Assembly: GCA_964388035.1 (NCBI GenBank)
Contig: CAYLZE010000068.1
Coordinates: 13,116 to 27,187, forward strand
From: an uncultured archaeon
GTDB lineage: Archaea; Asgardarchaeota; Lokiarchaeia; Sigyniarchaeales; SOKP01
Direction: 5' to 3'
Length of the DNA: 14,072 nt
The notes beneath the pieces were generated by a model. That model had not been told where the DNA came from, searched no databases, and saw only the letters and a program-made list of their open reading frames with translations. This document shows, piece after piece, positions 4,388-13,989 of this stretch (positions within the stretch are counted from its first letter, which is position 1; every line of letters starts with the position of its first letter). The position numbers and the translations under genes are program-made.

Positions 4388-5026
4388 ATGTCTAAATTAC
4401 CTCGGTTTCCCGACTCGTATAAAGGAACAGCTGCAAATGATTATGATGCAGAACCATGGATGGAACGAAATCAGAAAAAGACCACACTGAAATTGCTGCA
4501 GTTTTTGAGAGACCCTCATTTGGGCAACTCTAATGAAATTAAAGGAGATTTTTCGAATATCCTTTTAGACTTAGGGTGCGGAACGGGATTTTCCTCGGAA
4601 ATCATGGTAGAACAAGAATTTCGAGTAATTGGCGTGGATATTTTATGGGACATGCTTTCCATCGCCAAAGAAAAATTTGAATTATCTCAATGCATTCATC
4701 TACATTTCATTTTAGCAGATATCAATCATCTTCCAATCAGACCAAAAACAATGGATCATGCCTTATCCATTTCAGCATATAATTTCATTACTCACGCCAT
4801 GAAATCGCAAGATCACGTGAAAATGAGATTAAAAAGCACCGCGAAACACATTCATGAAATATTAAAGGCAAATGGAAGATTGATTATTGAATTTTATCCT
4901 ACAGGAGATACAGATTTAAATCTATTTACGGATTCTTTCATCCGAACTGGTTTTGAGGGATTCAGGATCAAAAAAAATCCCCAACAAAAAGCCGGACAAA
5001 CCTTTCTTTTATTAAAGAAGAAATAA
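4388..5026 (+). CDS. Class I SAM-dependent methyltransferase, Bud23/WBSCR22-like
   Basis: Motif I LLDLGCGTG and GVDI, plus Bud23-like segments P..Y...A..Y, Q...T...L, DHALSISA, LK..G....FYP and GF.G......P..K....L.L. Confidence 0.8.
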   Translation: MSKLPRFPDSYKGTAANDYDAEPWMERNQKKTTLKLLQFLRDPHLGNSNEIKGDFSNILLDLGCGTGFSSEIMVEQEFRVIGVDILWDMLSIAKEKFELSQCIHLHFILADINHLPIRPKTMDHALSISAYNFITHAMKSQDHVKMRLKSTAKHIHEILKANGRLIIEFYPTGDTDLNLFTDSFIRTGFEGFRIKKNPQQKAGQTFLLLKKK

Positions 5027-5137: not shown

Positions 5138-6274
5138 ATGGGAAGCTGTCAATTTTGCGGGAAAAATGACCCCTTGATTTCAAACGCGCTTCAAGCGTGT
5201 AGAGACTGCATCTTATCCTTGGATTGGTCCAAGATGATAGAACATTTTGAATCTATCCATGTAAAATATCATCATTTTCCTCCCATCTCTCAACCTTCAG
5301 CGACTAATCAATCTTCTGGAATTTCCTACTCTTGTGATTATTGTATCAATCAATGTATAATACATCCCAGAGAAAGCAGTTATTGCGGTCTTAGGAGGTT
5401 AGACCCCCAGGGAAAACCCGCTTTTCCCTTTCCTACGAAAAATATTGGGTACATGCACGGATATTTGGATCCGAATCCCACCAACTGCTGCAATGCTTGG
5501 ATTTGCCCCGCTGGAAGCCAAATAGGGTATCCGATTTATTCTGATCAAAATGGTCCTGAACTTGGGACTTATAATTATGCTGCATTCTTTTATGGGTGCT
5601 CGATGAATTGTCTATTCTGTCAGAACGCTTCCCATAAAACTATTTCAAAACAATACCTGGTTAAAGCGGAAGAGATTGCTATGGAAATAGCATATAATGT
5701 CAAGATAAGTTGTTTATGCTACTTTGGAGGAACTCCCGAACCCCAGCTCCCTTTTTCTATCAATCTGGCTAAACAAATTTTGAATAATATTCAAAAATCG
5801 GGAAAAAATCGAATATTCCGGATTTGTTGGGAGTGGAATGGCACCGGAAAACAGGCACTTGTTGAAAAATGCATGAAGATTGCCTTGAAAACAGGAGGAA
5901 ATATCAAATTTGATTTAAAAAGTTATCATGAGAAGCTGAATATTGCCTTGTGCGGGGTGAGTAATAAAAGAACGCTCGATAATTTTATATACTTAGCAGA
6001 AAAATATTTTGGAACACGAAAAAACGTGCCCGAGATGACCGCTTGCACCCTTTTAGTACCAGGATATGTAAATCACGAGGAAGTCGAGCAAATAGCACGA
6101 TTTGTTGCTTCCATTAACGATGAAATCCCGTATAGCTTGTTAGTGTTTCATCCCGACCATCGAATGAAAGACCTTCCCATCACTCCCAAAGAGGAGGCGC
6201 TTAAATGTCTAGCCACGGCGAAACAGTATTTAAAAAACGTAAATTTGGGAAATCAATTTCTATTACATCTCTAA
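5138..6274 (+). CDS. Radical SAM protein, PflA/AmmeMemoRadiSam-related archaeal type
   Basis: CxxxCxxC (GCSMNCLFCQN), YFGGTPEP, WEWNG, KFDLKS, TLLVPGYV, YSLLVFHP. The N-terminus carries extra Cys clusters (CxxC...CxxC and CxxCxxxC...CG). Confidence 0.88.
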   Translation: MGSCQFCGKNDPLISNALQACRDCILSLDWSKMIEHFESIHVKYHHFPPISQPSATNQSSGISYSCDYCINQCIIHPRESSYCGLRRLDPQGKPAFPFPTKNIGYMHGYLDPNPTNCCNAWICPAGSQIGYPIYSDQNGPELGTYNYAAFFYGCSMNCLFCQNASHKTISKQYLVKAEEIAMEIAYNVKISCLCYFGGTPEPQLPFSINLAKQILNNIQKSGKNRIFRICWEWNGTGKQALVEKCMKIALKTGGNIKFDLKSYHEKLNIALCGVSNKRTLDNFIYLAEKYFGTRKNVPEMTACTLLVPGYVNHEEVEQIARFVASINDEIPYSLLVFHPDHRMKDLPITPKEEALKCLATAKQYLKNVNLGNQFLLHL

Positions 6275-6288
6275 AGTCAAGATTTATA

Positions 6289-6301
6289 TTTTTTATTTTT
6301 T
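6289..6301 (+). terminator. Oligo-T terminator-like tract
   Basis: T6-A-T6 shortly after the radical SAM stop. Confidence 0.4.
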
Positions 6302-6404
6302 ATGAAAGAACTTCACGCAAAAATTTAATTATTAAGCTTCCCTTTACATCTTACTAATTAAAGAGTAATATTAAAAATGCATGGATTATATTAAAACAAG
6401 CATC

Positions 6405-6410
6405 GGTGAG
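6405..6410 (+). promoter_or_regulatory. Shine-Dalgarno-like GGTGAG upstream of uS10
   Basis: GGTGAG ends 5 nt before ATA 6416. Confidence 0.6.
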
Positions 6411-6415
6411 AAACT

Positions 6416-6721
6416 ATACAAAAAGCTAGAATACGATTATCATCGACAGATTTAGAAGCCCTACGATTAGTTTGTGAACAAATTGAAAATGTCACAGCCA
6501 GCCAAGGGATAAAAAAATACGGCCCCATTCCTCTTCCTACCAAGCACTTGCGCGTGCCCGTTCGAAAAGCTCCCTCGGGTCAAGGGACTGATACGTGGGC
6601 AAAGTTTGAAATGCGCATACATAAGAGACTCTTCGAAGTTATCGCAAATGAACGTAGCATGCATCTCATCATGAAAATACAAATTCCAGAGACCGTGCTG
6701 GTCGAAATAGAATTGATGTAA
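6416..6721 (+). CDS. rpsJ: 30S ribosomal protein uS10 (archaeal S10p), probable ATA start; missed by the ORF track
   Basis: Manual translation: (I/M)QKARIRLSSTDLEALRLVCEQIENVTASQGIKKYGPIPLPTKHLRVPVRKAPSGQGTDTWAKFEMRIHKRLFEVIANERSMHLIMKIQIPETVLVEIELM*, 101 aa. Carries the S10 signatures GPIPLPTK, RKxPxGxG and FEMRIHKRL. Confidence 0.95.
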   Translation: MQKARIRLSSTDLEALRLVCEQIENVTASQGIKKYGPIPLPTKHLRVPVRKAPSGQGTDTWAKFEMRIHKRLFEVIANERSMHLIMKIQIPETVLVEIELM

Positions 6722-6953
6722 AACCTTTTCATCATTTATATTTTCTTCATGACTTTAAAATCTCATGTTTTAATTCTTCCATGAGAAGATTGTGTTAATT
6801 TCCTCCCTCATAGTATTGAAATAAATGGGAGAAAATTATGGTTCTCACTTCTAATTCTTTAACCTCTTAGAAAAACTCTTCATGAATTACTTTATATCAG
6901 ATATTTTCTTATATTTTAAATGTACAATAGCCGATTAGAGAAGTGAGGATGCC

Positions 6954-7682
6954 ATGACAGATTATCACATAAAAAGTTTCTTTGGCGTGGAAACCGCCCT
7001 AATATTCACCAGTCCTTCTCGGGCGGTTCCCTACATATTTATCAATTGTATTCGGAAAAAAGATAATAAAAGCTGGGAAAAACCTTCCAGGGGCCAAGGA
7101 AAAACGGTCAAGATATCCATTGAGGAACTCATTTGCATTTTGGAGGTGTTACACAGGAAAAGTGCAAATTGGCGGGGATTTCACATCTTTAAAGATTATA
7201 AGACCGAAATCTATGTTGGTTGGGAAGATGAGTCTCGTCAAGTCGTCACGTTCAAAATAGGAGATTACATCAAGAAACTCCGTTTTCCGAATCTTAATTT
7301 TCTCACTTTATTGTTAGAACATGTTCTTTCTGAAAAGATTGAATTTGCCACTTCAGGAACATTTGAACCTTCTATAAGCGATTCTGATAAAGATCTAGAG
7401 GCAGAAGATCAATATGGATTTTTCTCTGAGCATATTACAGCCCGAGATGGTCTTCAAGTAGTGGAGACTACGGAATATGATGTTTCTAACGAGACCGTAG
7501 AAATAAAAGCTAAATTAAAAGTAGAAAGTCCTAAAGCATTATTAATAACGCTAGATTCGGGAGAAGAATTCTGGCTTCCTAAAAGTACCATTCATAATGA
7601 GCCTGATCTTAAAGAAAGAGAGAATTTTCAAAATCTGATCGTGGATAAATGGATAATAGAGAAAAATAAAATCTTAAAATGA
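6954..7682 (+). CDS. Hypothetical two-domain protein: possible Whirly/PC4-like N-domain, acidic linker, small beta-rich C-domain
   Basis: 242-aa ORF with SD-like GTGAGG upstream. Apparent repeated beta4-alpha pattern and a C-terminal ESPKALLI...EFWLPKSTI...IVDKW module. The stop overlaps the next start (ATGA). Confidence 0.6.
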   Translation: MTDYHIKSFFGVETALIFTSPSRAVPYIFINCIRKKDNKSWEKPSRGQGKTVKISIEELICILEVLHRKSANWRGFHIFKDYKTEIYVGWEDESRQVVTFKIGDYIKKLRFPNLNFLTLLLEHVLSEKIEFATSGTFEPSISDSDKDLEAEDQYGFFSEHITARDGLQVVETTEYDVSNETVEIKAKLKVESPKALLITLDSGEEFWLPKSTIHNEPDLKERENFQNLIVDKWIIEKNKILK

Positions 7683-10757: not shown

Positions 10758-11246
10758 TTGAAAGTGGGATTAGTCATGACTCGAGATGTGTTAAGGTTTT
10801 ATCAAGCCTATATTAATGAAATGTTCGACATTGGGGGAGAAAACCTTCCGAAATCAATATCTACCCGATTAGGAGCAAAATTGGCACGATCCTATAAACA
10901 GGAGGGAATTCAGGATATAGAGTTTGGAATAAAGACCCTTTTTGGAGGAATGAATGCACGAACTAAAGTTGTAGAGCGAGATCGAGATCGAATTGAAATC
11001 ACCGCGAAATATCGCAAGAGATTTTGTCCTGTCGGTGGCATGTTAAATCCAGAACAAGCAGAAAAAACACAAGAAATGATTTGCCGTCCATACATTTTGG
11101 GATTTCTGAACGAATTGGATCCACAATTTAAATATCACGCGGAATCTAAACAATGTATTTTAGAATCTAACGGAAAAACGTGTTCATTTATTTTAAAAAC
11201 CGAAAGAAAGCATGGCGATGCAAGTAATTCCAACTCTTCTGATTAA
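10758..11246 (+). CDS. V4R-like Cys-rich protein, array copy A
   Basis: RLGAKLA helix, FCPVGG, ICRPYILGFL, QCIL...TCSFILK. The start is uncertain (TTG 10758, GTG 10764 or ATG 10776). Confidence 0.7.
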   Translation: MKVGLVMTRDVLRFYQAYINEMFDIGGENLPKSISTRLGAKLARSYKQEGIQDIEFGIKTLFGGMNARTKVVERDRDRIEITAKYRKRFCPVGGMLNPEQAEKTQEMICRPYILGFLNELDPQFKYHAESKQCILESNGKTCSFILKTERKHGDASNSNSSD

Positions 11247-11469: not shown

Positions 11470-11928
11470 ATGGTTAGTATTACACTAGACGCTCTTAAAT
11501 TTTTTCATTCTTTTTTGCAATCATTAATTGATCTCGGAGGGACCCATTTGCCCGCATCTGTTGCTACTCATTTAGGGGCCAAAATAGGAAAGATATACCA
11601 AAAAAATGGAATTTTGGGAATAGAAAATGGGTTAGAACATATCTATAAAGCTTTAAATGGTAAAATTCAAATAAACAAGCTTGATGATTATACCTATGAA
11701 TTTATAATAGAATATCCCAATAATTTCTGCCCAATTGGTGGAGAATGTAATCCTGATCGAGCACAGATCATACAAAAAAGCATTTGCACTCCTTATACCA
11801 CGGGATTCTTAAAAATAATGGATCCAACCACTAACTATTTGGGTGATATTAAAGAATGCATTCTACAAACAAATGAAAATAAATGCAGATATACATTAAA
11901 AGCATCGAAAGAAAGCATGGAAATGTAA
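11470..11928 (+). CDS. V4R-like Cys-rich protein, array copy B (chimeric tail)
   Basis: HLGAKIG, NFCPIGGEC, SICTPYTTGFL, KECILQTNENKCRY; close paralogue of 12176. Confidence 0.75.
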   Translation: MVSITLDALKFFHSFLQSLIDLGGTHLPASVATHLGAKIGKIYQKNGILGIENGLEHIYKALNGKIQINKLDDYTYEFIIEYPNNFCPIGGECNPDRAQIIQKSICTPYTTGFLKIMDPTTNYLGDIKECILQTNENKCRYTLKASKESMEM

Positions 11929-12175: not shown

Positions 12176-12667
12176 ATGGTAAGTATTACACTAGATGCTC
12201 TTAAGTTCTTTCATTCTTTTTTGGGATCATTAATAGATATCGGAGGATCTAATTTACCAGCAACCGTTGCTTCTCATCTAGGATCCAAGTTAGGAAAATT
12301 ATACAAAGAAAGGGGAATTTCAGGAATTGAAGAGGGGTTGAGACATAGTTATGAAGTTTTAAATGCCAAAACTCAAATAAACAGGATCGACACTCTAACC
12401 TATGAGTTTATAATGGATTATCCCGATAATTTCTGCCCAATAGGTGGAGATTGTGATCCTAAGCGAGCAGAAGTGGTGCAAAAAAGCATTTGCTATCCGT
12501 ATACCATAGGATTCTTGAATGAAATAGATCCCAACGCTAAATATACGGGTGAAATTAAAGAATGTATCCTTCAAACGAATGAAAATAGATGCCGATATCT
12601 ATTAAGATTGGAAGAACAAAGTAATATAGAAAAAGTACGTAATATTCCTATAAAGCAACCGCTTTAA
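12176..12667 (+). CDS. V4R-like Cys-rich protein, array copy C
   Basis: HLGSKLG, NFCPIGGDC, SICYPYTIGFL, KECILQTNENRCRY. Confidence 0.75.
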   Translation: MVSITLDALKFFHSFLGSLIDIGGSNLPATVASHLGSKLGKLYKERGISGIEEGLRHSYEVLNAKTQINRIDTLTYEFIMDYPDNFCPIGGDCDPKRAEVVQKSICYPYTIGFLNEIDPNAKYTGEIKECILQTNENRCRYLLRLEEQSNIEKVRNIPIKQPL

Positions 12668-13245: not shown

Positions 13246-13989
13246 ATGCAGTTAGATCTATTACAATACTTTCAAGGGACATTCTCGTTAATATACGTTA
13301 TCATCTCCACTTTTGTTAGCTTGGTTATTTTAAGTCATTATTTCAGTGATAGGAGAAAAGAATATCTACTGGTAGGTGTTGCAGTATTTGGTCTGGCGGG
13401 ACCCTGGTTTCCGGATGCAATTACCTTCTTAGTTGCCATTTTTACGGGATTCGGCTCTCCGGATGCCATGTATTTACAAATCACGATTATCATGGTATTG
13501 ATAACTACCGTCTTCACTCCCATTTCCATTTTGAGCTGGTTAGCCGTCATCACGAAGTTTTTAGAATTAAGTTATCGCAAGATCCTATTAATAATTTTTG
13601 TAATTTTGATGATTATCTTTGAAATTATTTTAATTCTATTTGCCGTCATGGATCTTACTCTAATAGGAATTTTCACTGGTCCATTTAATTACCAATGGAG
13701 CATGTTTACCACTGTATTTTACCTGTTCTGTATTGCATTGGTAATTATTACCGGATTGCCCTTTGCACGGCGCTCCATGCTATCAAAAACCTCAGATATT
13801 CGATTAAAGGGAAAGTTCATCTTATTAGCCTTAATCTCTTTTGCCGTTGGAACGATTATTCCTTATTTGGTCTATAACATCCCTGCGCTAGTCCTTTCTA
13901 GATTAATCTTGGTCTCTTGCTCCATCGAGTTTTATATTGGATTTTTGTTACCAAAGTGGGCGGAAAATCTATTTTTAAGAGAGAAATAG
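13246..13989 (+). CDS. Seven-transmembrane protein of unknown function (Lokiarchaeia-type stand-alone 7TM)
   Basis: 247 aa with seven hydrophobic segments, basic short loops (SDRRKE, SYRK, ARRSMLSKTSDIRLKGK) and a C-terminal GFLLPKW. Confidence 0.75.
   Translation: MQLDLLQYFQGTFSLIYVIISTFVSLVILSHYFSDRRKEYLLVGVAVFGLAGPWFPDAITFLVAIFTGFGSPDAMYLQITIIMVLITTVFTPISILSWLAVITKFLELSYRKILLIIFVILMIIFEIILILFAVMDLTLIGIFTGPFNYQWSMFTTVFYLFCIALVIITGLPFARRSMLSKTSDIRLKGKFILLALISFAVGTIIPYLVYNIPALVLSRLILVSCSIEFYIGFLLPKWAENLFLREK

Follow-up and report, generated by a model that had tools for sequence, protein, structure and literature searches.

A probable AUA initiation codon for ribosomal protein uS10 in a family of Lokiarchaeia

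Near-cognate start codons in described systems

The infC gene of Escherichia coli, which begins at AUU and is subject to autoregulation by IF3, offers a point of comparison for the uS10 locus described here, and there is a likeness between the two in that infC has a conserved near-cognate start codon whose weakness is functional. In E. coli infC, however, a feedback loop is closed by the gene product, which itself discriminates against the codon, and uS10 is no such factor; a closer analogue of infC in the present genome would be aIF1 (see below). The locus does not belong to the autoregulated fidelity-factor type (infC, eIF1), its product being uS10, and the suggestion of an earlier note on this DNA that the start might act as an initiation-fidelity sensor, in the manner of infC, found nothing specific to sustain it, as uS10 is not a fidelity factor and ATA and ATT starts occur on dozens of unrelated genes.

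A second group of cases comes from Staphylococcus aureus, in which infC (AUA), ccpN (AUA), citZ (AUA) and cvfC1 (AUU) start behind extended Shine-Dalgarno (SD) sequences; the weak codons yield about 10-30% of the output of AUG, and the strong SD is thought to direct weak-codon selection (bioRxiv 10.1101/2025.06.19.660503). As with uS10, relatives share the AUA or AUU, and the distance from it to the strong SD in front is a normal one. The S. aureus cases are bacterial (IF3), number four genes per genome and have been shown by ribosome profiling and reporters, whereas the present case is archaeal (aIF1, aIF1A and aIF2), extends to dozens of genes including one for an essential ribosomal protein, and is predicted from sequence.

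Among the archaea, ribosome profiling of Haloferax volcanii placed some 30% of putative alternative initiation sites at near-cognate codons, which the authors set aside so as to keep false positives down (PMC7261190). These are, however, alternative or novel sites rather than the sole conserved starts of essential genes, and Haloferax mRNAs are mostly leaderless, unlike the SD-led reading proposed here for uS10. A study using E. coli extracts describes AUA as translatable when placed in an optimised initiation region, and non-AUG starts as responsive to growth conditions (PMC5499595); the system there is a bacterial cell-free one with engineered mRNAs. A literature search for near-cognate starts in Asgard archaea found no paper.

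The uS10 gene and the codon at its start

The window, by which is meant the whole stretch of 14,072 nucleotides that was analysed, contains a uS10 (rpsJ) gene (Table 1) whose product matches Pfam PF00338 Ribosomal_S10 (S10p/S20e) over the entire profile (positions 1-98 of 98, E 3e-25, 88.7 bits against a cut-off of 21.2) and is 73-90% identical to uS10 in 112 other genomes of the family. There is one copy, free of internal stops, in the 5.47 Mb genome (96.7% complete), in which no second match was found. None of the 56 conserved-residue columns in the uS10 alignment is written with a single codon throughout, which points to purifying selection. A pseudogene is ruled out by the intact frame, by the synonymous variation around conserved residues and by the fact that this is the sole copy. 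Upstream lie two conserved neighbours, a radical SAM gene and a gene for a SAM-dependent methyltransferase, which in 12 and 15, respectively, of 29 relatives' loci lie no more than 1.5 kb from uS10, sister families included; the oligo-T run that follows the radical SAM gene is likely, judging by its composition, to be an archaeal terminator.

Table 1 Features at and around the uS10 start (positions are those of the window)
Feature	Position	Strand	Remarks
SAM-dependent methyltransferase gene	4388..5026	+	Conserved neighbour of uS10; Pfam methyltransferase families
Radical SAM gene	5138..6274	+	Conserved upstream neighbour; Pfam PF04055
Oligo-T run	6290..6301	+	3' of the radical SAM gene (ORF end 6274); likely terminator, from sequence
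Conserved distal block	6320..6354	+	BRE/TATA-like AAAATTTAATTA plus 23 nt ending TTAC; candidate promoter
Middle TATA-like block	6366-6377		Would place the transcription start site (TSS) near 6398
Five-codon mini-uORF	6377..6394	+	In frame with uS10, ATG..TAA (MHGLY); 21 nt between its end and ATA
24-codon ATG uORF	6381..6455	+	+1 frame, ends with TAG, overlaps the uS10 start; probably without function
Proximal AT-rich TATA-like block	6385..6396	+	Centred some 26 nt ahead of ATA, on which the TSS would then fall
Shine-Dalgarno GGTGAG	6405..6410	+	GGTGA is complementary to UCACC in the 3' tail of 16S rRNA; 6-nt spacer to ATA
In-frame TGA	6407..6409	+	Closes the uS10 frame three codons before ATA
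ATA, proposed initiation codon	6416..6418	+	Presumed Met from initiator tRNA
uS10 (rpsJ) CDS	6416..6721	+	101 codons from ATA 6416, stop TAA 6719-6721; Pfam PF00338

At the 5' end of the gene the in-frame TGA is followed by GAA ACT, then by the ATA, and then by CAA AAA GCT AGA, so that the frame passes from the TGA into the conserved QKARIRL with no ATG, GTG or TTG on the way; the earliest canonical codon in this frame is the TTG at 6548, which is codon 45. The run of codons from the TGA onwards is as the earlier note had described it, as are the GGTGAG lying 5 nt before the ATA and the ATG uORF that overlaps the start in another frame, the translation of which agrees exactly. That note had also placed the ATA at the position where archaeal S10 has its Met, and this too is borne out, since in sister families the uS10 ATG stands in the same alignment column. 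Reassignment of ATA in the genetic code is ruled out by internal ATA codons of uS10, which align with conserved Ile.

The most direct evidence on the role of this codon comes from its relatives. Of the family's 135 species-level genomes, 113 yielded a uS10 gene, and the codon aligned to the ATA was read in 114 loci: it is ATA in 57, ATG in 22, TTG in 15, GTG in 14 and ATT in two, so that 110 of the 114 carry one of these five codons, the others being TCG (two loci), GTT (one locus) and ACA (one locus, where a TTG stands one codon upstream). The possibility raised in the earlier note, that all close relatives have ATG, is thus not what is found, and the genome of the same genus that was compared (G001) has ATA too. 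Where the aligned codon would read as Val it is GTG in 14 of 15 cases, and where it would read as Leu it is TTG in 15 of 15, while TTA and GTA occur at none of the 114 loci and GTT only once; since in a lineage of 33% GC an internal Ile, Val or Leu site would be rich in ATT, in GTT or GTA, or in TTA, this set of codons is the signature of an initiation codon. In many of the ATA loci a stop (TAA or TGA) comes one or two codons earlier, which leaves no upstream start on offer, while immediately downstream the QKARIRL is kept in relatives even as its codons vary synonymously (six different Arg codons are used), implying that the N-terminus of uS10 is coding. In sister families of the same order the gene has ATG at this point, or GTG or ATG one codon upstream, and the three single-contig genomes of one such family (f2) have ATG; the genomes searched included no cultured member of the family to which the window belongs.

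Three loci do not fit this pattern. In two genomes of genus g9 (G009 and G019; loci L017 and L018) the codon is TCG, behind a perfect GGTGAG, and an ATT, 16 codons upstream, is the sole in-frame near-cognate codon; in the sister genomes the start position holds TTG, from which TCG differs by a single transition. In G120 (L116, a single MAG) the codon is GTT, behind a perfect SD, and at none of the three loci is a near-cognate start close by. Neither TCG nor GTT is near-cognate, and a model based on ATA starts leaves them unexplained.

A few further peculiarities emerged from the same comparison. One g11 genome (G106) contains a second uS10 match (L104), on a 5.8-kb contig whose upstream sequence and GTG start are of the type seen in genus g2, and this contig is probably mis-binned. 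In G006 (L020) the uS10 gene carries a 30-nt insert after nucleotide 185 of the CDS, and in G105 (L125) a 31-nt insert after nucleotide 84; in both, removal of the insert restores an intact frame of 101 codons, and the G105 insert folds as a helix, a 3-nt bulge, a 4-bp helix and a further 3-nt bulge, like a tRNA-type BHB intron.

Shine-Dalgarno pairing, selection and starts elsewhere in the genome

The 3' end of the genome's own 16S rRNA reads GGATCACCTCCT (contig C189), and the energy of pairing with this tail (the anti-SD) was calculated for the 17 nt upstream of each uS10 start in the family. For the gene in the window, the duplex with the tail GGAUCACCUCCU has a dG of -7.6 kcal/mol, and in every ATA, ATT or GTG form that carries GGTG, the GGTG(A) stands 6-9 nt ahead of the start. 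When the loci are grouped by start codon, the median dG is -11.2 kcal/mol for ATT (2 of 2 at or below -6), -7.4 for ATA (56 of 57), -6.65 for GTG (8 of 14), -4.75 for TTG (5 of 16) and +0.5 for ATG (0 of 22), and the ATG form lacking an SD occurs in at least four separate genera. The weaker the start codon of uS10, then, the stronger its SD, as would be expected if the SD serves to position a weak codon and the total strength of initiation is kept in balance.

Whether ATA is itself selected depends on the level at which the question is asked, and it must be remembered that the related genomes compared here are not independent samples. Within g11, a genus delimited by taxonomy, the ATA is invariant in 41 of 41 intact primary copies of uS10, even though the third base of 16 of 17 conserved Lys, Gln or Glu codons alternates between A and G (6.4 parsimony steps per site on average) and mean third-position identity in the gene is 58%; a single A-to-G change would turn the ATA into ATG, and none is seen in the 41 copies. 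On these counts, ATA in g11 is evidently held by selection against ATG, and such a preference within one genus would fit a tuning of expression. Over the family as a whole the start codon has changed some 20 times on the gene tree, and its third position took 11 parsimony steps as against 12-31 for synonymous sites, so that there is no clear family-wide constraint; the codon is evidently labile between genera, and the signal of selection comes from within g11.

An SD-anchored count was made over the genome, in which a codon was scored if it lay 5-9 nt after GGTGA with an in-frame stop no more than 12 codons upstream, at least 100 open codons downstream, and a stretch free of canonical starts from 12 codons before it to 8 after it (without the upstream-stop filter the count was swamped by GGTGA occurring inside genes). 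This gave ATG 47 times, TTG 17, ATA 13, ATT 12 and GTG 8, with every other codon appearing three times at most. Measured against three scrambled motifs, ATA reached an odds ratio of 14.7 (p 1.7e-6) and ATT one of 19.4 (p 2e-6), which may be compared with 9.7 for TTG and 4.5 for ATG, while the composition-matched codons AAA, TTA, AAT and TTT showed no enrichment after the SD relative to the same scrambled motifs. With three SD motifs merged, the counts were ATG 130, TTG 34, ATT 23, ATA 17, GTG 15, ATC 8, ACG 3 and CTG 2.

Further support for these starts comes from the encoded proteins. When 20 of the near-cognate-start genes were compared with Pfam, the domain was found in 12 to begin well before the first canonical start, and in those 12 the match starts at profile position 1-4 (position 16 in the case of an Arf match). 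Examples are PCNA_N (domain from residue 3, canonical start at codon 30), ATP-synt_D (residue 12, codon 63), two Ras-family GTPases (residues 10 and 21, codons 57 and 50), an aldo-keto reductase (residue 19, codon 82), AFOR_N (residue 4, codon 77) and DHDPS, for which the putative start is ACG (residue 6, codon 30). The ATA of uS10 is, on this reading, one case of a genome-wide practice of starting at near-cognate codons, and the non-AUG initiation of uS10 proposed in the earlier note is strongly supported by the comparative and genome-wide evidence taken together. A further likely case is the gene for aIF1 (the genome's only SUI1/aIF1 match, at L126 1426-1719, G000:C78), in which the first canonical in-frame start, a TTG, falls inside the N-terminal CPxC..CxC knuckle; its start is likely, from the position of the codons, to be an ATT five codons before this zinc knuckle.

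Proposed initiation at the ATA and competing explanations

Translation of uS10 thus very probably starts at ATA 6416 behind its SD. In mechanistic terms, uS10 would be a free-standing gene with its own leader, in which GGUGA (6405-6409) would pair with the 16S 3' tail and place the 30S subunit so that the AUA, 6 nt downstream, occupies the P site. Initiator Met-tRNA would accept the AUA with a mismatch at the third position, and the protein would begin M-Q-K-A-R-I-R-L, its predicted N-terminal peptide being (M)QKARIRLSSTDLEALR. AUA is a weak start and comes in this family with a strong SD, and the AUG relatives manage without one, so that the total strength of initiation seems to be balanced; that AUA has been kept over AUG in at least one large genus suggests that a low efficiency may actually be wanted, perhaps to tune the dosage of a gene that has left its usual operon. 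More broadly, the genome would seem to have a habit of SD-led genes that start at AUA, AUU or AUC, and less often at ACG or CUG. The sequence itself, its conservation, the signal of selection in g11, the correlation with the SD and the enrichment over the genome are observations, while the initiation event at AUA, the N-terminal Met, the efficiency and the TSS are all deduced here from DNA sequence.

As to the leader itself, the candidate promoter is the distal block, of which the pattern (AAAATTTA-TTTAAT... 23 nt ...TTAC) is more strongly conserved than the rest of the leader, and which starts, where it was located in the genera that were aligned or printed (ATG forms included), some 55 to 127 nt from the start codon. 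Its form and position fit a promoter, for which the predicted TSS would be near 6355 and the leader about 61 nt long. The idea that this block is a repeated or mobile element was dropped, as it has just four loose matches elsewhere, in unrelated contexts. Folding of 25 leaders (-100 to +45) with RNAalifold gave zero consensus pairs, and so no sign of a structured autoregulatory leader, and at E values up to 1 no Rfam family was matched in 6150-6950. The 24-codon uORF occurs in G000 (the present genome) and G001 only, both of one genus, differs between these two at 5 of its first 11 residues, and has no SD before its ATG at 6381. Five-codon uORFs resembling the shorter one are found at -39 to -42 in G144, in three g6 genomes and in one g7 genome, and the mini-uORF recurs at that distance in four genera, but 27 of 42 g11 genomes, and genus g13, have no ATG uORF in the uS10 leader, so that the mini-uORF cannot be required for an ATA start. 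The peptides encoded at the same place in g2, g6 and g7 are MNRKF, MTRKF, MPYKF, MPRKF and MNHKL.

Given that the sequence comes from a MAG and that a one-base difference would suffice, the simplest objection to an ATA start is that of a sequencing or assembly error, either of a true ATG or through the loss of one A, as the earlier note had itself considered. Public metagenome contigs were scanned with a flanking 35-mer in which the three start-codon positions were left free, and this returned one contig (L031, from a JGI metagenome), which matches the window at every position of 6100-6900 but for one SNP near 6826, and has the same ATA and the same run of three As; the same 35-mer, again with the start codon free, had no match in the genome collection. 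With an independent contig identical at the uS10 start, and with ATA carried by 57 species-level genomes, an error can be rejected as next to inconceivable. A more elaborate alternative, likewise anticipated in the earlier note (together with uORF control), would have translation begin at a canonical start in another frame, either at the ATG of the 24-codon uORF or at a GTG or TTG inside the SD, and then shift frame to yield an N-terminally extended uS10 (MDYIKTSIGEK...). It is true that the ATG at 6381 opens a +1-frame ORF running across the uS10 start, that a short overlapping ORF starts in many relatives from the NTG-GTG inside TTGGTGA, and that the spacer is A-rich. However, the distance from GGTGA to the start takes three values in g11 (6, 7 or 8 nt) and two in g6 (6 or 7 nt), and because it varies in this way among close relatives the shift that would be needed changes sign, leaving no fixed relation between the frames. 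In addition, the spacer of G001 (GAGTGGCC) lacks an A-run, the ATG uORF is confined to one genus with a peptide that is not conserved, no conserved slippery heptamer is present at the uS10 start in the family loci, and an Ile codon internal to a longer protein would not be limited to ATA, ATT and NTG. The overlapping ORF that opens from a GTG or TTG within the SD in 48 of the 57 ATA loci was set aside as a by-product of the GTG in GGTGA, its frame varying with the spacer. A frameshift is accordingly rejected as very improbable, and control by the uORF finds no support either.

Rather more deserving of attention is the suggestion that the mRNA is leaderless or nearly so, with a TSS at or beside the ATA directed by the proximal block, in which case GGTGA would be promoter DNA and no SD would be transcribed. 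In many genera a CGTAAA-TTTTAAA block does end about 22 nt short of the start codon, as the textbook spacing of TATA and TSS in archaea would have it. Leaderless initiation, in the systems where it has been studied, depends strongly on a 5' AUG, though, and the codon here is ATA; moreover GGTGA is conserved and pairs more strongly where the codon is weaker, and the same layout (GGTGA, 5-9 nt, then ATA or ATT) heads unrelated genes across the genome. Genes in general show a peak of G at -12 to -8, with no fixed TATA at -26 genome-wide in either SD or non-SD genes, and the leader has, at a distance from the start that varies, another promoter-like block further upstream which is better conserved, in the ATG forms as well; on balance a leaderless transcript seems improbable. 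A further suggestion is that regulation is built upon an SD-led start at AUA: the weak codon could make uS10 output sensitive to the stringency of initiation (that is, to the level of aIF1), or to termination and reinitiation at the mini-uORF. In favour of such an addition are the selection against ATG in g11, the recurrence of the five-codon uORF in four genera, the gene for aIF1, which also has no canonical start before its zinc knuckle and has ATT there, and the finding that the efficiency of AUA starts in S. aureus varies with the medium (bioRxiv 10.1101/2025.06.19.660503). Against this, an ATG uORF is missing from the leader in most genomes of the ATA type (as in g11 and g13, above), and dozens of unrelated genes share starts of this kind, so that no special circuit is needed. 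uS10 is not known to play a part in the choice of start codons, and taken together these points leave a regulatory addition rather unlikely, if by no means fanciful. Somewhat less doubtful, though still put forward tentatively, is a wider conjecture: that in this family stringency on SD-led mRNAs has been relaxed, with AUA, AUU and AUC becoming regular starts; that selection holds essential genes, uS10 among them, on the weak codon, trading strength of codon against strength of SD; and that, together with a near-cognate start for aIF1, this might form a circuit setting the dosage of translation components, a possible forerunner, among the nearest relatives of eukaryotes, of control of the eIF1 type.

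Consequences for annotation, and other ORFs in the window

Standard gene finders accept ATG, GTG and TTG only, with the result that proteins having near-cognate starts are missed or shortened. Some NCBI records for uS10 of this family do give M at the ATA (e.g. P0029, which corresponds to G088), but in public collections the ATA-type gene has been called variously as 94, 96, 101 and 103 aa, and uS10 of the present genome is absent from the protein collection when searched at E 1e-20 for lengths of 56-181 aa. As uS10 is a common phylogenetic and completeness marker, missed calls distort both the quality scores of MAGs and the trees built from them. The SD-anchored test used here is simple, and may be applied to any genome in which unusual start codons are suspected. 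Beyond annotation, an essential ribosomal protein whose gene keeps AUA in dozens of species of those archaea that are closest to eukaryotes would offer a natural system in which to ask how ribosomes working with aIF1, aIF1A and aIF2 set the stringency of start-codon choice, and whether weak starts set dosage.

Elsewhere in the window, the ORFs at 6954-7682, 218-802, 805-1293, 1558-2403 and 13246-13989 gave no match to Pfam, nor did the one ORF tested among three tandem paralogues at 10758-11246, 11470-11928 and 12176-12667, which encode proteins of about 150-165 aa with a common CPIGG motif. The ORFs at 218-802 and 1558-2403 both have a zinc-ribbon-like CPxC...C N-terminus.
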